A stretch of DNA of 44,417 nucleotides from a virus (taxonomy: Duplodnaviria > Heunggongvirae > Uroviricota > Caudoviricetes): IMG/VR virus record IMGVR_UViG_2606217118_000001. One strand, written 5' to 3'. Both the position numbers and the translations under genes were made by a program. The notes beneath the pieces were generated by a model. The model saw only the letters and a list, made by a program, of their open reading frames with translations, was not told the origin of the DNA and made no database searches. Each line of letters opens with the position of its first letter. Position 1 is the first letter of the stretch. Positions 1,081 through 44,417 of this stretch are shown one piece after another.

Positions 1081-1662
1081 TTACCCTATAGGTGCTACTG
1101 GCCATTCAATATCCGGTGCAGTTGTTGTATTAACACGGTTCAGCAACACCCGATACTTCTTCCAGGCTTCCAGCAACGAGATTTCTTCCTCCGTTGCGAT
1201 TTCCAGATCTACAGCATCCTGAAGTGGCGCAATATGCTCACTGGCTACCTGCATCAGGCTGTTTTTTGTTTCTTCTGCCTCCCGGATCCGGAACAGTTTT
1301 TCTGCTTCCGTATCCTTCACCCAGGCTGTGCCGTTCCACTTCTGAAACTCCCCTTCCGGCGATAACCAGGTAACATTTTCCGCTAACGGACCGAGTTCAG
1401 AAATAAATAACGCGTCGCCGGAAGCCACGTCATAGACCGTTTTACCCCGATGGTCTTCAACGAGATGCCACGATGCCTCATCACTGTTGAAAACAGCCAC
1501 AAAGCCAGCCGGAATATCTGGCGGTGCAATATCGGTACTGTTTGCTGGCAGACCTGTATGAGGCGGAATATATGCGTCACCTTCACCAATAAATTCATTA
1601 GTTCCGGCCAGCAGATTATAAATTGTTATGGTCCGTGGTTGTTCACTCATTCTGAATGCCAT
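1081..1662 (-). CDS. tfa: Tail fiber assembly protein (lambda Tfa-like)
   Basis: 193 aa, [24 protein letters not shown]...; start overlaps stf stop. Confidence 0.9.
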
Positions 1663-4600
1663 TATGCAAGCCTCACAATATAGTTAAATGCGATGTTTTT
1701 GACGGTGTTTTCCGCGTTACCAGCAGCGTTAACGGTGATGGTGTGTCCATGTGAGCCAATCGCAACCGAGTGCGTATGAGCACCAATACCGACAGTATGT
1801 GCGTGTGCACCTGCGCTTGCAGCAGTGCCGGACAGTGAGTGGGTATGAGCACCATCTGATGATGTCTTCCCTGCATTACGAGTCTGGCCACTACCGCTTG
1901 TTGTGCTCATAATCCCCGCGCTTGGATTTGAAATCGCGGTATAACCATTAGGGAAAATGCTCGTGTTCGTGCCACCAAATGCACCGGAACTCTTGTGTTG
2001 GTGCGCACCGGCACTATTTGCGGTCCCGCTAATACTATGGGTATGCGCCCCGGTGTTATTCGTGGATTTGGTTCCGTAATCAAACGACGATGTGGTTTTC
2101 GTCCCCAAATCCGTACTGGATGCGCTGGCGCTGTGGGTATGCGATTTAATGCCGTCCTGTTCCTGAGACAATACGGCCCGACCACTGGCAGGTTTGCCCT
2201 TAATCGTCCAGCCACGCATATCAGGGATCACGCCTGACGGATAAGCCGCTGCAAGTTTCGGGTAGGCAGATTTGTCAAAAGCCTGCCCCTGCATCAGGGC
2301 ATAGCCAGACGGAACGGTATCTGATGGCCACGGGATTGGTGCGCCGACTGGGTAGCTTTCTGGTGGAAGATTTTTCGAGGTATAAACTTCTGCCCAGTCT
2401 TCCTCAAAACCATAGCCATCTCTTGAGGAACGGTAGAACAGACCTCCATTTCTGTAATGCGCCTTCATCTGCAGGGTCCGGCAACTTCCGACTCCGGTAT
2501 AGAAGTTAACCAGAATATAGCTGTCGCCAGAGCGGGTGACATTGTAAGCGCCTGATTCGGCATTCCAGGGAACGCCACCATCCGCATCGGCATATGTATC
2601 CGTTGCCCTTCTGGCAAAAGCAGCCACATGCGCGGCGGTTAAAGTAATATCTTTGGAACCATCAAACTCAACACCAGAAACCAGTCTTGGCGTTTGCAGC
2701 TTTGTTGCTGTTAATGCATTACCGTTCAGACTTGCGGACAGTTTGGTTCCAATAATCAGTTCGCCGGTTGCGTTATCAATAGCAAACGGTCTTAATGTAT
2801 TCCAGCCACCATAAACATCACCTTGATTGGTAAGCAGCAGGTAAGTTTTAGCGCCATCATTACGCCATAATGCACCATACTCCCCACCTATCATTCGAAT
2901 CTGATTACCACCACGCGCTACAATTTCGTCTGTGGCAAAAAGTTTTTTGCACGACAAGTTATCGTTAACGATTAACGAATGAGACTCATAAAAACCACGC
3001 CCACTCTTAAAATCAAGGATAACGTCCGCCGCGATACATTCAGTCGCCGGATTTGTTGCCCCAAACTTATAGGTCGTATCATTAACAACGAGATCAGCAC
3101 CAGGTGCGGATATTGACAGGCCATCTTCGATAAACGCAAAAACAGGGAAAGCAGCGCCATCAACATAGAACACAGAGCGCAAATCATCGCCCTTATTACT
3201 CATCATTATTGAGTGGATGGCTCGTTCATTGTTTTGATATTGCCAGAACATTCCATAAGCATAACGCCCCCTGTCAGTCCAGCCACCAGGCATAACAAAT
3301 CCGTTAAACTCGCAGTTATTCATCGGATCGCCTGCGGTTCGCGTTGCCGTGGTGATAATGACCCTTGATGCCAGTTCGCTTACTGAGCCAGCAGAACGCA
3401 TAACAACAACAGGGTAATATTTTCCAGATGTTGCACCTGCAGGAGCGTTAACCCGCACATAACGCATACCACGCTTATCAGCAAAGTCTGTTTTACTGAC
3501 CGCGTTAATGTTGTTCAGGAAGCGTCCCTTATCGGGTATATCAGCGCCGTTCTGGTCTTTCTGCAGACGTTTCTCTGCATTGTCATAGGCTGATTTTACT
3601 GCCTTTGGCGTTGCCGCCAGCGTTTCAGACGTACTGTTGGTCGCACTGCTGAGCTGTACTACCCCCTTTTTCGTCGTGCTCGCATCCTCAAGCGCCACGG
3701 CGGATGCAATATCCTCTGCCCGTTTTGCCGCTGTCTCGGCGCGCGTTGCCGCGGATTCCGCCGTACTTTTGCTCTGTGCTGCCGCTGCCGCACTGCCAGC
3801 TGCCTCTGTCGCCTTCGTGGATGCTGTCGTGGCGCTGCCCTTCGCTGCTGACGCCTGTCTGGTCGCCTCATCTTTTGAAGCAGACGCCGATGATGCCGAT
3901 GACGCCGCCGAACTGGCTGACGATGCGGCAGCCGTTTTTGAGGATTCTGCGCTGGTTTCCGACGCTTTCGCGTTCGTTTCGGATGTCTTCGCTGCGGAAG
4001 CAGACCTCGCTGCTGCGCTGGCCTGTTCAGTGGCTTCGCCAGCCTTCGTTGTGGCTGTTGAAGCAGACGATGCGGCACTTTCTGCCGACTTTCCGGCAGC
4101 GGTGGCACTGGCTGAGGCCTGCCCGGCACTGGCTGAGGCCTGCCCGGCACTTGTTGACGCGGCGCTGGCAGACGACGCAGCCGCTGTTTTTGAGCCTGCC
4201 GCAGCTGAGGCACTCTGTCCCGCTGCCGTTTCAGAAGACTTAGCGTTCGTCTCGGACGTTTTGGCCGCCTTCGCAGAATTTGCTGTCGCCGTTGCCGAGG
4301 AAGCTGCGCTGCTGGCGCTCGAGGCTGCGCTCGTTTCTGATGATTTTGCCGCCTCTTTTGAAGCTGACGCATCCCGGGCTGAGGTGGCAGCTTCTGACGC
4401 TTTCGTGGTCGCGGTGGATGCAGAAGTGGCTGCTGATTGTTGTGACGCTGCCGCATTCGTTTCTGACGTTTTCGCCGCAGCGGCACTGGTGGCCGCCGCG
4501 CTTTTTGAGGACTCTGCAGCGGCAGCACTTTTTTCCGCTTCAGTGGCCTTTGTTGATGCCGTTCCTGCGCTGGAAGACGCTGACTGAGCCGACGACGCGG

Positions 4601-5084
4601 CCTGTCCGGCTGACGTGCTGGCTGCGCGTGCTGAGCCTGCAGCATCAGTCGCATGGGTTGCCGCCTCACGGGCTGATGTGCCGGCATCGCTGGCTGACTT
4701 CTTCGCGGCTGCCGTGTTCTGTGCCACCGCGGACGCGTTACGCGCCACCTCTTCCACCATCAGTTCAAAACGGCGCAGAGCCTCAGGACGGGCATCATCC
4801 TCTGTCATGGCACCGAGAAAATCATTCAGCGTACCGGGTTGAGAATCTTCATACACGGTAATGGTCCCGGCATGTGATGGCGGGAATCCCTCCACCAACA
4901 GACTGACGCTGTACTGACCATACTCGACGTCCATTGTGTAACGCCCGGCTTCATCCGGGTTTTCTGAGGCCACTGTGTTCACCACCACCGTGGTGCTGTT
5001 GCGCCTGGCCTTTAGCTGAATGGTGCAGTTTTGTATCGGCTTACCTGCGCCATCTTTCAGTACACCTGAAATCCGTACTGCCAT
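1662..5084 (-). CDS. stf: Side tail fiber protein (Stf-like), 1140 aa with long Ala/Ser-rich low-complexity region and C-terminal His-rich GAHTHS motifs
   Basis: N-terminus [31 protein letters not shown]... resembles lambda Stf; SD GGGGGG upstream; internal tandem repeats. Confidence 0.85.
4108..4149. repeat. Perfect 21-bp tandem duplication (ctggctgaggcctgcccggca x2) inside stf low-complexity region
   Basis: Two identical adjacent 21-mers at 4108-4128 and 4129-4149; encodes repeated SAGQASA heptad. Confidence 0.9.
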
Positions 5085-32604: not shown

Positions 32605-32895
32605 TCATCTTTTAACTCCATATACCGCCAATACCCGTTTCATCGCGGCACTCTGGCGACACTCCTTAAAAATCAGGTTCGTGCTCATCTTTCCTTCCCG
32701 TTCTTCCCTGGTAGCAAACCGGTAATACACCGTTCGCCAGACCTTACCTTCGATAACCAGAAGACCTGCCCGTGCCATTTTAGCCGCGGCCTGATTTATG
32801 CTGGTTACTGTTGCGCCTGTTAGCGCGGCAACGTCCGGCGCACAGAAGCTATTATGCGTCCCCAGGTAATGAATAATTGCCTCTTTGCCCGTCAT
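32605..32895 (-). CDS. ren: Ren protein
   Basis: 96 aa MTGKEAIIHYLGTHNSFCAPDVAALTGATVTSINQAAAKMARAGLL... Confidence 0.9.
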   Translation of the reverse strand: MTGKEAIIHYLGTHNSFCAPDVAALTGATVTSINQAAAKMARAGLLVIEGKVWRTVYYRFATREEREGKMSTNLIFKECRQSAAMKRVLAVYGVKR

Positions 32896-33593
32896 ACACT
32901 TGCTCCTTTCAGTCCGAACTTAGCTTTAATTTCTGCGATCTTCGCCAGAGCCTGTGCACGATTTAGAGGTCTACCGCCCATGACAGGAAGTTGTTTTACT
33001 GGTTCAGGGATCGCCTCACCACGGTTAATTCTCGCAGTCATATGGACAAGCTCATCTGCGGCCTTACGGCGTAATTCCGCATCAGTAAGCGCATTGGCCC
33101 GCATGTTCTGATACAGGTTGGTAACCAGCCAGTAGTGCGCGTTTGATTTCCACGGATAAGACTCCGCATCCGGATACAGGCCTCGCTTCCGGCAATACTC
33201 GTAAACCATATCAACCAGCTCGCTGACGTTTGGCAGTCCGGCGGTAACGGATGCTTCTTCCCGGCACCATGCAACAAACTGCCCGGGTGATGGCAGAAAT
33301 GGTCGATTCTGCCGACGGGCTACGCGCATTCCTGCGTTAACCTGTTCCATCGTGGTGATCCCGTTTTCCCGAAAAGCCAGAACCCACTGGCGACGGATTT
33401 CGTTCACTTCGTTCTGGTCACGGTTAGCCAGGCTCGCCGGGAAAGTTGCCAGTAACTGGCTGAACACACCGTTGATGATCTGCGCTACCTGCTGTACCTG
33501 CGGCTTTTCGTCGTACTGTTCCGGCATGTTGTTGGCGATCCGACGCATCTGCTCACGGTCAAAGTTAACCATCTGTGCGGCGATGTTTTTCAT
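32892..33593 (-). CDS. P: Replication protein P (helicase loader)
   Basis: 233 aa MKNIAAQMVNFDREQMRRIANNMPEQYDEKPQVQQVAQIINGVFSQ... Confidence 0.95.
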   Translation of the reverse strand: MKNIAAQMVNFDREQMRRIANNMPEQYDEKPQVQQVAQIINGVFSQLLATFPASLANRDQNEVNEIRRQWVLAFRENGITTMEQVNAGMRVARRQNRPFLPSPGQFVAWCREEASVTAGLPNVSELVDMVYEYCRKRGLYPDAESYPWKSNAHYWLVTNLYQNMRANALTDAELRRKAADELVHMTARINRGEAIPEPVKQLPVMGGRPLNRAQALAKIAEIKAKFGLKGASV

Positions 33594-34489
33594 AGATCCA
33601 CCCCGTAAATCCAGTCTGTGTTTGTCAGGTCGAGTTTTGGTTTGCTGGCTGTCACGCCTGCCTGTTGCTTGTTACGGTTGATTTCGAGTTGGGTCCACTT
33701 ATCGCGGAGTTTGGCCGGGCTCAGCACGTTACCGGACCAGAAGTTGTCCTGGCATGCCCAGCGGAACAGCACACACATGTCGCGGTGGTTACGTCCGTCA
33801 CGTTCACGCATCAGGCGGATATCGTTAGCCCACCCAGCAAAATTCGGTTTTCTGGCTGATGGTGCGATAGTCTTCACCATGTCAAACATCCACTCTGCGG
33901 CGGTCAGGTCTTCTGCTGTCCCCCACTTGCTGCCGCTCTGAATTGCAGCATCCGGTTTCACCACAGAAAGGTCGTTTTCTGGCTGGTCAGAGGATTCGCC
34001 AGAATTCTCGGACGAATAATCTTTTCTTTTTTCTTTTGTAATAGTGTCTTTTGTGTCCCCCTGTTTTGAGGGATAGCAATCCCCCAATTTGAGGGATGTT
34101 TTATCCCTCGTTTTAGGGGATTTTCCCTCGTTTTGAGGGATACACCATTCTGAGATGTTTTTATTTGGTCCAAACATGCCGCCTTGCTGCTTGATAATAT
34201 TCATTCTGACGAGTTCTAACTTGGCTTCATTGCACCGTTTGACAGGTAACTTTGTAATCTCGCTAAGTTGAGAATCGGTGATTCTGTCCATTGGTTTATT
34301 CCACCCATAGGTTTTACGCAGAATGGCAAGCAGCACTTTAAACTGTCGCTTGGTCAGATCTGCGCCCGAATAAGCCTCAAGCAGCATATTTGATAGTCTG
34401 GCGTAACCATCATCGAGATCTGCCACATTACGCTCCTGTCCGGCAAAGTTACCTCTGCCGAAGTTGAGTATTTTTGCTGTATTTGTCAT
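33590..34489 (-). CDS. O: Replication initiator protein O
   Basis: 299 aa MTNTAKILNFGRGNFAGQERNVADLDDGYARLSNMLLEAYSG...; contains ori. Confidence 0.95.
   Translation of the reverse strand: MTNTAKILNFGRGNFAGQERNVADLDDGYARLSNMLLEAYSGADLTKRQFKVLLAILRKTYGWNKPMDRITDSQLSEITKLPVKRCNEAKLELVRMNIIKQQGGMFGPNKNISEWCIPQNEGKSPKTRDKTSLKLGDCYPSKQGDTKDTITKEKRKDYSSENSGESSDQPENDLSVVKPDAAIQSGSKWGTAEDLTAAEWMFDMVKTIAPSARKPNFAGWANDIRLMRERDGRNHRDMCVLFRWACQDNFWSGNVLSPAKLRDKWTQLEINRNKQQAGVTASKPKLDLTNTDWIYGVDL
34058..34142. repeat. ori: Replication origin: four iterons (O-binding sites) with adjacent AT-rich segment (about 34011-34056)
   Basis: ccccctgttttgaggga / atcccccaatttgaggga / atccctcgttttagggga / ttccctcgttttgaggga, each an inverted repeat; T-rich run alongside. 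Confidence 0.9.
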
Positions 34490-34566
34490 AATGACTCCTG
34501 TTGATAGATCCAGTAATGACCTCAGAACTCCATCTGGATTTGTTCAGAACGCTCGGTTGCCGCCGG
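34490..34566 (+). ncRNA. oop: oop antisense RNA (overlaps 3' end of cII) with its terminator
   Basis: Plus-strand hairpin cgctcggttgccgccgggcg followed by TTTTTTATT at 34541-34568, as recalled for the lambda oop terminator; 5' end approximate. Confidence 0.55.
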
Positions 34567-34818
34567 GCGTTTTTTATTGGTGAGTCCATCAAGCGCATAC
34601 TTAAAAGCCCTGCTAATCGGACTGATGTCTGATGCCATTCCGAAAGCACACAAGACCGAAGCAATAAATCTCCAGTCCGTTCTGCTTATCTTCGATTCAT
34701 GACAGCCAATCATCTTTGCCAGACCGCGCTGGGTAATAGCTGACAGATTGATAAGTAAATCTGTTTCTGCGCGATCAACGTCACGCTGTGATAGTTTGCT
34801 GTAACTTGTTCTTTCCAT
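34522..34818 (-). CDS. cII: Transcriptional activator CII, chimeric (non-lambda N-terminal region, lambda-like C-terminus)
   Basis: 98 aa; C-terminus ...LTNKKRPAATERSEQIQMEF matches lambda CII, N-terminal ~75 aa do not. Confidence 0.8.
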   Translation of the reverse strand: MERTSYSKLSQRDVDRAETDLLINLSAITQRGLAKMIGCHESKISRTDWRFIASVLCAFGMASDISPISRAFKYALDGLTNKKRPAATERSEQIQMEF

Positions 34819-35175: not shown

Positions 35176-35286
35176 ATGCCCTCCATAGTAAACACGAATA
35201 AAAAAATACAATATGTACTTTACGAATACAAGTAAAAATACACATTGTGCATGGATGGTTCCAGTACAAAGCGTAATAATAAGGAC
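35176..35286. promoter_or_regulatory. Divergent cro/cI control region (putative OR operators, PR and PRM)
   Basis: AT-rich with repeated TACAA/TTGTA-type inverted half-sites (tacaatatgta, tacacattgtg, tacaagta); between divergent cro and cI. Confidence 0.55.
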
Positions 35287-35946
35287 ATGAAAATGAAATG
35301 GTATGAACTGGCTAGATCCAGAATGAAAGAGCTCGGCATAACTCAAGAGAAGTTAGCCGAAGAGCTAGGTATGACGCAGGGTGGGATTGGACACTGGTTG
35401 CGCGGATCTCGTCATCCATCTCTTAGTGATATTGGTGTGGTGTTTAAATACCTTGGTATTGATAACATATCATTCAACCACGACGGGACATTTTCACCTG
35501 TTGGCGAATACTCATCGGCCCCAGTTAAAAAACAATATGAGTACCCTGTTTTTTCTCATGTTCAGGCTGGGATGTTCTCTCCAGAACTCAGAACCTTTAC
35601 CAAAGGCGATGCGGAGAGATTGGTAAGCACAACCAAAAAAGCCAGTGACTCTGCATTCTGGCTTGAGGTTGAAGGTAACTCAATGACCGCACCAACAGGT
35701 TCCAAGCCCAGCTTTCCTGACGGGATGTTAATTCTGGTTGACCCTGAGCAGGCTGTTGAGCCAGGCGATTTCTGTATAGCCAGACTTGGTGGTGATGAGT
35801 TTACCTTCAAGAAACTGATCAGGGATAGCGGTCAGGTGTTTCTACAGCCACTAAACCCACAATACCCAATGATCCCATGCAATGAGAGTTGTTCCGTTGT
35901 GGGGAAAGTTATCGCTAGTCAGTGGCCTGAAGAGACGTTTGGGTGA
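35287..35946 (+). CDS. cI: CI repressor, chimeric: novel N-terminal HTH domain fused to lambda-like C-terminal S24/LexA-type domain
   Basis: [40 protein letters not shown]...; from [15 protein letters not shown] onward matches lambda CI; start could be 35293. Confidence 0.85.
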
Positions 35947-36012
35947 TATATGTGAAATGCATATATTGATATAAATGCAGCAATATCAAATAGTTAAAAG
36001 GTTATATTTTTA

Positions 36013-36393
36013 ATGAATGATCTTGATAAGAAAAAGTACGACCAAGTTATTGATTCTGTGAACTTCGCCCTTAGATCGTTGTCAGAGTTATTCGAAGCCC
36101 ATGGAATGCATGGGATGTATGATCTAACGAATCCAAGCCTTGATGAGCTAAAATTAGTGTTTACAAGGATGAAAAACGGAGTTGACTCTATTGCTCAAAG
36201 CTTTGAGCACATGGTAGAGACAGCAAAGGATATGGATGCCGCAAGTGCAAGCATAAATGTTATGAACATCAAGCAAGGATTGATGTATGCTGAATCACTA
36301 TTGCTTGCTGTAGAGAAATTAGACTATGATAAATGTGTGGAAGCAAATACGCAGATAAAAACCCACGATCTTCCACCAACCCAATGGCCTTAA
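36013..36393 (+). CDS. Hypothetical 126-aa protein in the immunity-region moron slot (rexAB position); unknown function
   Basis: ORF MNDLDKKKYDQVIDSVNFALRSLSELFEAHGMHGMYDLTNPSLDELK...; AT-rich codon usage unlike backbone; follows cI on same strand. Confidence 0.65.
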   Translation: MNDLDKKKYDQVIDSVNFALRSLSELFEAHGMHGMYDLTNPSLDELKLVFTRMKNGVDSIAQSFEHMVETAKDMDAASASINVMNIKQGLMYAESLLLAVEKLDYDKCVEANTQIKTHDLPPTQWP

Positions 36394-36462
36394 TAGTAAA
36401 TCAAGATTTCATATAGTCTATTTGAACTAGGCTAGTACCATAAAATAAACCGAGGAAACGCA

Positions 36463-36564
36463 ATGAAAACCATGTCCACTCTGCACAAAGATGCAATGAC
36501 CCTGAGATCTCTCATTAACGAGATTCTGGCTCGCTCGTCAGCACACACCAAAAAAGCTGCATAA
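36463..36564 (+). CDS. Hypothetical 33-aa protein downstream of the 126-aa moron gene
   Basis: MKTMSTLHKDAMTLRSLINEILARSSAHTKKAA with strong SD GAGGAAA 6 nt upstream; followed by terminator. Confidence 0.45.
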   Translation: MKTMSTLHKDAMTLRSLINEILARSSAHTKKAA

Positions 36565-36574
36565 TGCCTACATA

Positions 36575-36603
36575 ACCCGGCCTCAGCGCCGGGTTTTCTT
36601 TGC
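36575..36603 (+). terminator. Rho-independent terminator ending the cI-moron transcript
   Basis: acccggc-ctcagc-gccgggt hairpin followed by TTTTCTTT. Confidence 0.75.
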
Positions 36604-36739: not shown

Positions 36740-36830
36740 ATTAAATACAAAGCGTTATAAAAAACCACGCCAACTTACAACAAATTGTATTGATCTTGTA
36801 AAGTACATATCGCACTATTTAACCGTCAGC
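36740..36830 (+). promoter_or_regulatory. Putative OL/PL region
   Basis: AT-rich segment upstream of nutL with operator-like motifs (acaaattgtattgatcttgtaaagtaca) resembling those between cro and cI. Confidence 0.4.
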
Positions 36831-36864
36831 AGGACGCTGGAAGCCAAATGGAACAGACTGGCAG

Positions 36865-36909
36865 GCTCTTTAAACAACGTCGACTCTCGACTACGTGGCT
36901 GAAAAGCCA
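36865..36909 (+). promoter_or_regulatory. nutL-like site (boxA GCTCTTTAAACAA plus boxB hairpin tggctgaaaagcca)
   Basis: boxA-like motif then GAAAA-loop hairpin closely matching the nutR hairpin; lies upstream of N. Confidence 0.6.
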
Positions 36910-37007
36910 GATCACCCAACCACATAAGCTGTGGGATGCAATGCCGAAGCAACCGTCTCAGGAGGAGCTTCGAGATTGCATCGCCAAAGTTTATTCGGGA
37001 GGAATCC

Positions 37008-37280
37008 ATGTCCAGAAAAACAGAATTTAAAGGCACCGCAGCTTCTCGCCGTAGAGCTCGTCGCGCAAATCTGCAAAGTCAGGAGGCGATCAGCTCCGAC
37101 ACGCTACACAGGCCAACCCCTTCACGAGTGGTCTTGCAATGCAAGCGCAAACCAGCAATGAGAGCAGAAGTGATAACTCTGACAACGTTGACCAGAAAAT
37201 ATGAAGGTTCAACTTGTCTTCCGAACGTAGCTCTTTACGCGGCAGGCTACCGGAAATCAAAACAACTGACGGCGAGATGA
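37008..37280 (+). CDS. N: Antitermination protein N (non-lambda; P22 gp24-like C-terminus) with N-terminal arginine-rich motif
   Basis: MSRKTEFKGTAASRRRARRANLQSQE...LPNVALYAAGYRKSKQLTAR; SD GGGAGGAA; longer track ORF starts upstream. Confidence 0.75.
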   Translation: MSRKTEFKGTAASRRRARRANLQSQEAISSDTLHRPTPSRVVLQCKRKPAMRAEVITLTTLTRKYEGSTCLPNVALYAAGYRKSKQLTAR

Positions 37281-37296
37281 TAAATTCATTTGCTAA

Positions 37297-37878
37297 TTAC
37301 TTGTTTTTGCCATGCTTATCCTGAGCGATAAGTTCATCCATAAGGCTGTCTGCCTTCCCGGCAAACCGAATGTAGCACTCATTTCTATAGCGTTCCGGGA
37401 TAACAAAACGGTCGATTTCAGGATATCCAGTAGCAGAAGGTATCCGAATAAGAAGCCCTTTTTCGAGCAATGAGATTGCTTCAGGGCTTCCCTTTTCTGT
37501 CTTTAGCTGGTTATTCGCGGCTACAGCGAATGCCAAATACGCTCTTTCTCCAAGAGTTAACGAATCAAACAAATCTTGCACATATTTTTCTTCTTTAGAT
37601 TTGCACTTCTGAGCAGCGGATACCTCAATTCTTTCAGTCACAGCGTGATAAGCGGAATTAACAACACCGTTAAGCACATAGCTAACGCAGAACAACAGGA
37701 TGTAATACATCCAATAATAAGGAAGGATTTCTGGATTATGCAGGTTTATCCATTCTTTTACGCTTACCGGCATAACAATAATCAATATGATCAGGATGAT
37801 TAGCATATGAATCAACTGTTTAAGTGTCATTCCTTGCAGGAAAAAATGCATTAGTTCCTGCCACCATGAGTTGTTCAT
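37297..37878 (-). CDS. sieB: Superinfection exclusion protein B (SieB-like) membrane protein, antisense to the PL operon
   Basis: 193 aa MNNSWWQELMHFFLQGMTLKQLIHMLIILIILIIVMPVSV... with two hydrophobic segments; convergent with N. Confidence 0.6.
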   Translation of the reverse strand: MNNSWWQELMHFFLQGMTLKQLIHMLIILIILIIVMPVSVKEWINLHNPEILPYYWMYYILLFCVSYVLNGVVNSAYHAVTERIEVSAAQKCKSKEEKYVQDLFDSLTLGERAYLAFAVAANNQLKTEKGSPEAISLLEKGLLIRIPSATGYPEIDRFVIPERYRNECYIRFAGKADSLMDELIAQDKHGKNK

Positions 37879-38843: not shown

Positions 38844-38916
38844 GCGCGGCGTTACCGCATACCAATAACGCTTCACTCGAGGCGTTTTTCGTTATGTATA
38901 AATAAGGAGCACACCA

Positions 38917-39054
38917 TGCAATATGCCATTGCAGGGTGGCCTGTTGCTGGCTGCCCTTCCGAATCTTTACTTGAACGAATCACCCGTAAATTACGTGACG
39001 GATGGAAACGCCTTATCGACATACTTAATCAGCCAGGAGTACCCAAAAATGGAT
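38917..39054 (+). CDS. cIII: CIII (FtsH/HflB inhibitor), 45 aa, C-terminally shorter than lambda CIII
   Basis: [46 protein letters not shown]; stop TAA overlaps kil start. Confidence 0.8.
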
Positions 39055-43779: not shown

Positions 43780-44417
43780 CACAGAAAACCCCCAGCTAGG
43801 CTGGGGGTTCCGGAAAGCTTTCAGCTTTGAGCCAGTTATTAAAACCCCTTTTGATTTGTTAAAACACCTTGCGGTCTGGCAACTGCAAGTGTCAAACAAG
43901 AAATCAAAAGGGGGTCCCAATGGGGAACGAAAAGAGCTTAGCGCACACCCGATGGAACTGTAAATATCACATAGTTTTTGCGCCAAAATACCGAAGACAA
44001 GTGTTCTACAGAGAGAAGCGTAGAGCAATAGGCAGTATTTTGAGAAAGCTGTGTGAGTGGAAAAGCGTACGGATTCTTGAAGCTGAATGCTGTGCAGATC
44101 ATATCCATATGCTTGTGGAGATCCCGCCCAAAATGAGTGTATCCGGCTTTATGGGATATCTGAAAGGGAAAAGCAGTCTGATGCTTTACGAGCAGTTTGG
44201 TGATTTGAAATTCAAATACAGGAACAGAGAGTTCTGGTGCAGAGGGTACTACGTCGATACGGTGGGTAAGAACACGGCGAAGATACAGGATTACATAAAG
44301 CACCAGCTTGAAGAGGATAAAATGGGAGAGCAGTTATCGATTCCCTATCCGGGCAGCCCGTTTACGGGCCGTAAGTAACGAAGTTGGATGCAAATGTCAG
44401 ATCGTGTGCGCCTGTTA
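43780..44417 (+). mobile_element. IS200-family insertion sequence, partial (left-end hairpins plus tnpA; right end beyond window)
   Basis: Left-end palindromes cccccagc-tag-gctggggg and gaaagctttc followed by an IS200-type TnpA ORF. Confidence 0.8.
43920..44378 (+). CDS. tnpA: IS200/IS605-family Y1 (HUH) transposase TnpA
   Basis: Start MGNEKSLAHTRWNCKYHIVFAPKYRRQVFYREKRRAIGSILRKLCEWKSVRILEAECCADHIHMLVEIPPK (152 aa). Confidence 0.9.
   Translation: MGNEKSLAHTRWNCKYHIVFAPKYRRQVFYREKRRAIGSILRKLCEWKSVRILEAECCADHIHMLVEIPPKMSVSGFMGYLKGKSSLMLYEQFGDLKFKYRNREFWCRGYYVDTVGKNTAKIQDYIKHQLEEDKMGEQLSIPYPGSPFTGRK

Follow-up and report, generated by a model that had tools for sequence, protein, structure and literature searches.

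We analysed a two-gene cassette in the immunity region of a lambdoid E. coli prophage. The window, i.e., the whole stretch of DNA under study (IMG/VR record IMGVR_UViG_2606217118_000001; 44,417 nucleotides, nt), carries the repressor gene cI and the antiterminator gene N on its plus strand. Between them lie an open reading frame (ORF) of 126 codons, ORF126, and a second one of 33 codons, ORF33. The two represent a new protein family. In general terms its kind is known, i.e., cargo of mobile elements with a putative logic of toxin-antitoxin (TA) and abortive-infection (Abi) systems, but here the partner is an unusually small peptide with a degron-like tail.

The cassette and its transcription signals

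The following features make up the interval from the end of cI to the terminator.

35966-35994, plus strand: promoter-like site TTGATA-17-AATAGT, candidate promoter of the cassette (consensus scan, 9/12, not above shuffle expectation)
36013-36393, plus strand: ORF126, from its ATG to its TAA (ORF list)
36390-36417, plus strand: promoter-like site TTAATA-16-TATAGT across the stop codon of ORF126, candidate promoter of ORF33 (consensus scan, not above shuffle expectation)
36414-36434, plus strand: weak intergenic hairpin between ORF126 and ORF33 (RNAfold, -5.4 kcal/mol)
36463-36564, plus strand: ORF33, from its ATG to its TAA (ORF list)
36574-36603, plus strand: rho-independent terminator, equal to lambda tImm and the right border of the cargo slot (terminator scan; stem 36574-36595, T-tract to 36603)

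A preliminary description of this locus had already placed a two-gene unit on the cI strand directly after cI, and its coordinates hold. The same is true for the strong Shine-Dalgarno (SD) sequence it had assigned to ORF33, which is GAGGA at 36452-36456 (plus strand) with an anti-SD pairing energy of -5.9 kcal/mol. The SD of ORF126 is weak (-3.4 kcal/mol). The cassette is also AT-richer than its flanks, as had been stated, though only mildly so, i.e., its GC content is 0.36-0.39 compared to 0.45-0.49 for cI and 0.48-0.53 for N.

The description had furthermore listed a clean terminator as part of the unit. A terminator is indeed present, with a stem of 8 bp (6 G-C pairs) that is followed by TTTTCTTT. 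However, it matches the tImm terminator found downstream of rexB in lambda (AACCCGGCCTCAGCGCCGGGTTTTCTTTGCCTCACGATCGCCCC) base for base, and is therefore an element of the backbone and not specific to the cassette. Homology to the lambda backbone restarts a few bases 5' of the hairpin. From there, the terminator and about 100 nt beyond it correspond to the lambda tImm region, where the hairpin is identical and identity over the full match is ~92%. A copy of the cassette in Pectobacterium ends in a variant of tImm with the same GGGTTTTCTTTGCCTCA tail.

Between the stop of cI (35946) and the start of ORF126 (36013), the terminator scan reports no terminator-like site. Since cI and the cassette are co-oriented and no terminator separates them, transcripts from PRM and PRE should read into the cassette. 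The -35 element of the promoter-like site at 35966-35994 is overlapped by a perfect 7-bp inverted repeat, TTGATAT (35966-35972)-N10-ATATCAA (35983-35989), which is a possible operator for some regulator. For the promoter-like site at 36390-36417, a similarly placed one is seen in locus L008. Intergenic hairpins of unrelated sequence are present in 7/10 loci, and those of six other loci are stronger than the hairpin of the window. Only the hairpin of L025 (5413-5431, followed by TTTTT) passes the terminator scan.

On the opposite strand, three divergent loci share a promoter-like TTCACA-16/18 site within the 5' portion of their ORF126 gene (L025, 5050-5021; L008, 6050-6023; L004, 6050-6021; all minus strand). 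Its equivalent in the window is at about 36062-36033. This recurrence may be a mere reflection of the conserved SVNF codons.

Conservation of the pair and properties of its proteins

Each ORF126 relative examined, from 100% down to 26% identity, is followed after 21-84 nt by an ORF of 33-53 amino acids (aa) with an SD of its own and then by a hairpin terminator. That is, the co-occurrence check proposed in the preliminary description came out in favour of a fixed pair. The relatives stem from IMG/VR contigs and from NCBI assemblies of Pectobacterium, Klebsiella, Cronobacter and Pantoea, and further ones from Providencia/Proteus prophages (36-37% identity), plasmid contigs (32-40%) and metagenomic contigs (26-32%). 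In the Aeromonas phage AsXd-1, for instance, a homologue of ORF126 with 46% identity is followed by a gap of 25 nt, an annotated ORF of 36 aa and a terminator.

Both genes are real and under purifying selection. Among the enterobacterial copies, the large gene shows proportions of non-synonymous (pN) and synonymous (pS) differences of 0.09-0.19 and 0.72-1.0, respectively, and the small gene of 0.25-0.40 and 0.61-0.97. Thus, synonymous sites are saturated and non-synonymous change is limited in either case. The pairwise identities of the large and the small protein co-vary (r=0.86, 45 pairs).

The two genes differ in their translation signals and the two proteins in charge. In 10/11 loci, the small gene has the stronger SD, with energies of -5.9 to -8.6 kcal/mol vs. 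-0.2 to -4.1 kcal/mol for the large gene. Charge complementarity is found for 9/10 pairs, where the isoelectric points (pI) are 4.6-5.5 for the large and 9.3-10.5 for the small proteins. ORF126 of the window is acidic (pI 4.81, net charge -8) and ORF33 basic (pI 10.5). Both are charged and soluble, and the mean hydrophobicity of ORF33 is below 0.

One may ask whether ORF33 is a gene at all, or whether the cassette is one orphan gene plus an untranslated leader that extends to tImm. The Prokaryotic Genome Annotation Pipeline (PGAP) leaves ORF33 unannotated, and it has only 33 codons. On the other hand, other pipelines do call the small gene, a strong SD precedes it in every locus, and its protein is conserved over at least 16 distinct sequences despite the synonymous saturation. 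The small ORF is also kept next to distant ORF126 relatives (26-40% identity) and in the plasmid-borne copies. We consider the orphan-gene reading effectively refuted.

ORF33 is composed of an amphipathic helix and a flexible tail that ends in KKAA-COOH. Its family follows the same plan, i.e., an amphipathic helix (L..L...A..L..LI..L) and then a polar, Lys-rich tail. Only Met1 and the C-terminal Ala are invariant in the 16 distinct aligned sequences. Position -2 is always Ala or Val and position -3 always Lys or Glu, such that 16/16 sequences end in [K/E]-[A/V]-Ala-COOH. This tail is kept where the length and the remaining sequence of the small proteins have diverged.

Judged by its sequence, the tail of ORF33 resembles an ssrA-like C-terminal Ala-Ala degron. 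In a screen of random tags in E. coli, a terminal Ala-Ala proved to be the decisive trait of strong C-terminal degrons and was present in 91% of the 100 strongest tags, and a positive charge of up to +2 was tolerated (PMC10862746). The likeness to ssrA and the C-motif-1 degrons of ClpX concerns the flexible tail and its non-polar [A/V]-Ala-COOH end. It does not extend to position -3, where the ORF33 family has Lys or Glu instead of Leu. A resemblance of the ORF33 helix to CIII, seen by eye (RLIDIL vs. SLINEIL or GLIDDL), was rejected given an hhalign probability of 0.4% for alignment A7 against the CIII of the window and no Pfam match.

ORF126 has no match in Pfam, NCBIfam or PADLOC, and sequence and structure searches against PDB and BFVD return generic bundles only, with no significant relative. 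Its sole family match is phrog_16322, of unknown function (8e-89), and PGAP lists it as a hypothetical protein (WP_021539111.1). The family is tiny: at 90% identity it forms 23 clusters among 5.8 billion proteins, and a set of 1.84 billion proteins contains 18 representatives at 50% identity, where complete members have 97-134 aa. Searches of literature and supplements by accession, sequence and PHROG id returned no mention of the proteins.

The AlphaFold2 model of ORF126, computed from a 27-sequence alignment, reaches a predicted local distance difference test (pLDDT) score of 88.6 and a predicted template modelling (pTM) score of 0.81. It replaces a first model that was based on close homologues only (pLDDT 68). 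The protein is modelled as all-helical with three long helices (residues 3-38, 43-71 and 74-101) and a short fourth one of 13 residues (105-117). Judged by the secondary-structure map of this model, helix 4 would cover only part of the three-helix core, and a partner helix could pack on the core where helix 4 stops short. The model agrees with the preliminary description, which had called the larger protein helical, soluble and free of an obvious catalytic motif.

Conserved positions are found in the turn between helices 1 and 2 (G31, G34, P41, L46), in helix 3 (N85, Q88, G89) and at L96, D104 and C108. Close homologues (alignment A2) furthermore share a face of small residues on helix 3 (DMDAA.AS...G; D73, D75, A76, A77, A79, S80, G89), which might receive such a partner helix. 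In the alignments that span the whole family (A3 and A4), G89 is the only one of these positions to remain conserved. An identity of ORF126 as HEPN or HPt domain was rejected, since the alignment lacks Rx4-6H and the His of HGMHGM is not conserved in distant members.

We also inspected the integrity of the genes. The sole nonsense allele found is that of L024, with a nonsense codon at residue 95 of ORF126 and an intact ORF33. In an E. coli assembly (L054, 2345-2704), ORF126 has an in-frame deletion of seven codons (HMVETAK, residues 66-72), where ORF33 is intact as well. Seemingly truncated ORF126 proteins of 67-75 aa (P0021-23, P0046) turned out to be mostly mis-called starts of intact genes, one being a 7-aa in-frame deletion. 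A frameshifted small protein of 78 aa (P0056) is probably a sequencing artefact rather than a true lesion, since adjoining genes in that assembly are fragmented, too.

The cargo slot and the contexts of the pair

The backbone around the cassette is given by the following features.

32892-33593, minus strand: P, flanking backbone gene
33590-34489, minus strand: O, flanking backbone gene
34522-34818, minus strand: cII, flanking backbone gene
same block as cII, O and P, minus strand: cro
35293-35946, plus strand: cI repressor (Peptidase_S24 1e-28, HTH_3 2e-10; LexA family protein according to PGAP)
36745-36820, no strand assigned: OL/PL operator region, end of the cargo slot of the immunity region (operator-like repeats common to OR)
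37008-37280, plus strand: N antiterminator (PF25694 N_peptide, 6e-32)
37297-37878, minus strand: sieB, beyond N

The operator-like repeats shared by OR and OL form an inverted pair (35201-35223 and 36798-36820) and a direct pair (35265-35282 and 36746-36763). The gene order of lambda, i.e., cI-rexA-rexB-tImm-OL/PL-N, is the same as in the window, with ORF126-ORF33 in place of rexAB. The cassette hence occupies the rexAB position, as had been proposed.

Within the interval from PL to N, there is an additional ORF of 60 aa (36848-37030; WP_000438342.1 in PGAP) that overlaps the start of N. It is also found in L001, L059 and L060, i.e., in prophages sharing this immunity region, and would fall within the nutL leader.

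The likeness to RexAB covers the slot between cI and tImm/OL-PL, the strand, the terminator and the arrangement as two genes transcribed with the repressor in the lysogen, as is predicted for the cassette. In lambda, rexB has its own promoter. The second gene of the cassette may have one as well, which for ORF33 is a consensus match only. The proteins, in contrast, differ. The hhalign probabilities of alignment A4 are 0.2% for lambda RexA and 0.1% for RexB, and PADLOC yields no RexA/RexB match for ORF126 or ORF33, whereas the lambda proteins themselves score ~1e-110 and 1e-61. Sizes are 126 + 33 aa compared to 279 + 144 aa, the cassette encodes no membrane protein while RexB is polytopic and RexA a sensor protein, and only the ORF126-ORF33 pair is also found on small plasmids. 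Homology to RexA/RexB was rejected on the hhalign and PADLOC results; together with the Pfam, NCBIfam and PDB searches, they confirm the earlier statement that neither protein resembles RexA, RexB or any named family.

The slot is filled differently in prophages whose Cro and CII proteins are identical and whose cI has 96-99% DNA identity. ATCC 25922 has a pair of a 185-aa protein and a DUF1828 protein there that resembles the PADLOC candidate PDC-M24 (4.7e-10), strain 150 a PDC-S43-like fragment with a 173-aa protein, and strain CT30 an NYN protein. In the Proteus phage vB_BPM-V3, whose region is 96% identical to L037 including cI, the slot holds BstA (6.7e-21), and in phage Brookers again an NYN protein. 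The Providencia-type prophage L034 encodes a DUF3024 protein (4357-4698) with a PDC-S43 match (6e-38) between cI and the cassette, i.e., two cargo units are stacked in one slot. These occupants support the earlier view of the slot as a defence hotspot, and the cI-n interval has been described as a mosaic hotspot with rexAB and bstA that is transcribed with the repressor (PMC8585504). BstA, the NYN proteins, PDC-S43 and PDC-M24 thus share with the cassette the slot, the same or close repressors and the hosts, i.e., E. coli and Proteus/Providencia prophages. They are nevertheless unrelated proteins, none of which has an Ala-Ala-tailed peptide partner. A defence role of the cassette is suggested here through guilt by association.

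The same surroundings would suit a non-toxic exclusion complex. Here, ORF126-ORF33, or ORF126 alone, would block a component of an incoming phage or replicon (an assembly, replication or injection protein) and the host would survive, with ORF33 as subunit or specificity factor. The slot common to BstA, RexAB, NYN proteins and PDC candidates fits this, as do the predicted lysogenic co-transcription with cI and a protein-binding type of fold without catalytic site. Pairing, charge complementarity and co-divergence are suited to any obligate complex. Such a complex leaves the invariant [A/V]-Ala-COOH tail and the SD asymmetry unexplained, however, and accounts less easily for the pair as the only cargo of Rep/Mob plasmids of ~3 kb, which are described below. 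We regard it as unlikely.

Among 5426 complete E. coli genomes, the cassette is present in 32, always whole, single-copy and chromosomal, and 27/32 copies are attached to the cI of the window. A scan of the GTDB species-representative genomes yielded a single cassette locus. Overall, the pair lies behind at least five different S24 cI repressors, i.e., in the window, L025, L033 (Phage_CI_repr type), L034 and L037 (Providencia/Proteus). In Pectobacterium it is found behind an Mnt-like repressor in a P22-type ant-arc-mnt region, and in loci flanked by IS1595 behind a helix-turn-helix (HTH) protein of 113 aa. At prophage ends of Klebsiella and Cronobacter, the cassette is placed tail-to-tail with a umuD/umuC-like pair (Peptidase_S24 + IMS; L004/L048, 6936-8622; L052, 3088-4774). 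In Aeromonas phages it is near the prophage end, adjoining tail-fibre genes and a dinI that has a LexA-box-like CTGT-N8-ACAG upstream. For a partial ORF beside the cassette of L028, a UmuD-like identity is unsupported by Pfam.

The recurrent S24/SOS neighbours, i.e., five cI types, the umuDC-like genes of Klebsiella and Cronobacter and DinI of the Aeromonas phages, could point to a modulator of proteolysis or the SOS response that affects prophage induction. ORF33 would then be a ClpXP decoy or adaptor similar to ssrA or a LexA fragment, with ORF126 as its partner, and the pair would tune how fast phage replication proteins or members of the S24 family (cI, UmuD) are turned over. The resemblance of the ORF33 tail to C-terminal degrons of ClpX adds to this, and lambda RexB from the same slot is reported to inhibit ClpP-dependent degradation. 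We still find such a modulator highly improbable: the Mnt, HTH-only and plasmid contexts are without an S24 neighbour, positions next to cI or at prophage ends are generic moron sites, and a peptide made from a single gene copy would compete poorly for a protease that is abundant.

On contigs of ~3.1-3.9 kb with Rep_3 and Mob genes, the pair is the sole accessory module (L062, 1-3119; L065, 1-3908; also L063, L064 and L066). The contigs have iteron-like end repeats, and one shows a 19-nt terminal overlap. Their Mob proteins are either Mob_Pre or a MobC-like protein plus a 519-aa protein, and their Rep is ~60% identical to RepB of Enterobacterales plasmids of 4-7 kb. From these features, the contigs of ~3-3.9 kb have the appearance of small plasmids in full length, although PLSDB contains no DNA match to them. 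The place of sole accessory cargo on small plasmids is typically taken by stability and TA modules. Given that the family is also present on such plasmids, it is not a phage-only exclusion device.

Traces of transfer are visible at the borders of the unit. Immediately upstream of the cassette in L025 (~4860-4890) and L033 (~4845-4870), the 3' end of a lambda-type cI is left as a duplicated remnant (GTGGCCTGATGAGACGTTTGGGTGA), located behind a different, complete cI. These remnants and the tImm-like tail in Pectobacterium imply that the unit moved by recombination within conserved borders. The cassette had initially been described as a horizontally acquired moron, and this is borne out by its occurrence behind various cI and Mnt repressors, at prophage ends and on plasmids. 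It also shows presence/absence polymorphism between near-identical backbones, a terminator after the pair in all loci (in the window the tImm of the backbone) and a deviating GC content.

A toxin-antitoxin-like reading of the pair

We tentatively interpret ORF126 and ORF33 as a TA-like module for abortive infection or addiction, in which the antidote is a protease-labile peptide. This reading accounts for the pairing, the SD asymmetry, the opposite charges and the invariant tail, and also for the presence of the pair both in lysogenic slots and on plasmids.

In its logic, the pair most resembles toxin-first type II TA systems such as higBA, hicAB and mqsRA. Shared traits are two small co-directional genes with the larger one upstream, a small partner that has the better translation signals and carries a candidate tag for proteases, and a self-contained unit found in prophages and on small plasmids. 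It fails the family-homology and the DNA-binding-antitoxin criteria of this group, however. That is, the pair has no match to toxin or antitoxin families in Pfam, NCBIfam, PADLOC or PDB, the putative antitoxin of 33-53 aa is without a DNA-binding domain, and the putative toxin is modelled as a mere bundle of helices in which catalytic residues are missing. To our knowledge, a peptide of 33-53 aa would rank among the smallest protein antitoxins.

The module might operate as follows. In the lysogen, ORF126 and ORF33 would be transcribed with cI via read-through from PRM, possibly also from a promoter of their own. ORF126 would act as a stable, acidic helical-bundle effector that binds a cellular or phage target without catalysis. 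ORF33, overproduced from its strong ribosome-binding site, would dock with its amphipathic helix on the half of the bundle left open by the short helix 4, and this physical complex would keep ORF126 inert. Due to its [A/V]-Ala-COOH tail, ORF33 would at the same time be a constant substrate of ClpXP/ClpAP-type proteases. Once host expression is shut off, be it that a phage infects or that the element is lost, ORF33 would be gone first and free ORF126 would arrest the cell. The expected outcome would be abortive infection or exclusion in a lysogen, i.e., an anti-phage phenotype, and post-segregational addiction on a plasmid.

More doubtful is the wider proposal that the pair stands for a previously unrecognised, enzyme-free family of TA/Abi systems. 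In such a family, an ORF33-type peptide with an Ala-Ala degron would serve as the proteolytic timer and complete the effector bundle, which would provide defence to lysogens from the rexAB slot and be the sole maintenance function of plasmids of ~3 kb.

Several observations weigh against the TA-like reading. Neither a toxin domain nor a catalytic motif or a membrane segment can be recognised in ORF126. ORF33, a single helix with a tail, has neither a DNA-binding domain nor any domain match, and the autoregulation usual for type II systems is therefore missing. As for the tail, Ala-Ala alone is not always enough for degradation and Leu is favoured at position -3 (PMC10862746). With Lys or Glu at this position, the small proteins match a degron imperfectly. 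For asymmetric disruption, i.e., a broken toxin next to an intact antitoxin, a single nonsense allele is available, which is too few for a test. The intergenic hairpins, one of which is terminator-like, would lower the transcription of the antidote relative to the toxin. Induction shuts off PRM, such that the model needs an independent promoter of ORF33, for which the candidates are limited to weak consensus matches (35966-35994, 36390-36417). Finally, no homologue of the E. coli ORF126 is present among the 72,556 curated plasmids of PLSDB, and the plasmid cases are short assembly contigs.

The roles could also be reversed, or the pair could be Hha/TomB-like, i.e., ORF33 would be the active protein that binds a host regulator, a nucleoid protein or nucleic acid, and ORF126 would modulate or chaperone it. 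In this case, the expression of host genes or of the element would be tuned, as in lysogenic conversion or silencing, and no defence provided. By gene sizes and fold class, TomB/Hha (YmoB/YmoA) is in fact the nearest look-alike, although the fold match is generic. The small partner has 33 and not 72 aa, is without an Hha match and has no Cys in 9/10 pairs, i.e., the target cysteine is missing. Membership in TomB/Hha itself was rejected (hhalign probability 0.7%; no PF10757 match in 27/27 members of the ORF126 family). All in all, we deem a reversed or Hha/TomB-like pair quite unlikely.

If the TA-like reading is true, the pair would be a new and very compact family of prophage-encoded defence or addiction systems, where the last two residues of the antidote encode its instability and the effector works by binding and not by catalysis. 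Of all cargo slots in lambdoid phages, the one in which the cassette replaces rexAB is the best studied. The cI in front of it is common across E. coli and is also found in prophages of ATCC 25922 and O157:H7 with other cargo. Given this shared backbone with differing cargo, genetics should be easy, e.g., by cassette swaps in an isogenic lysogen. The pair furthermore is a concrete case of one module common to phage immunity regions and tiny mobilizable plasmids. Since standard annotation misses ORF33, similar two-part systems may be under-counted.

Finally, we screened the window with Rfam. No RNA family was reported for the cassette region. The cIII thermoregulator RNA element Lambda_thermo is found at the start of cIII (38903-38961, 88.5 bits). 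Two further matches score above the gathering threshold. IS009 (1121-1319, minus strand, 229 bits) lies within that end of the prophage where the tail fibre is encoded, and the Hfq-binding small RNA STnc490 (43787-43910, plus strand, 146 bits) near the other end.

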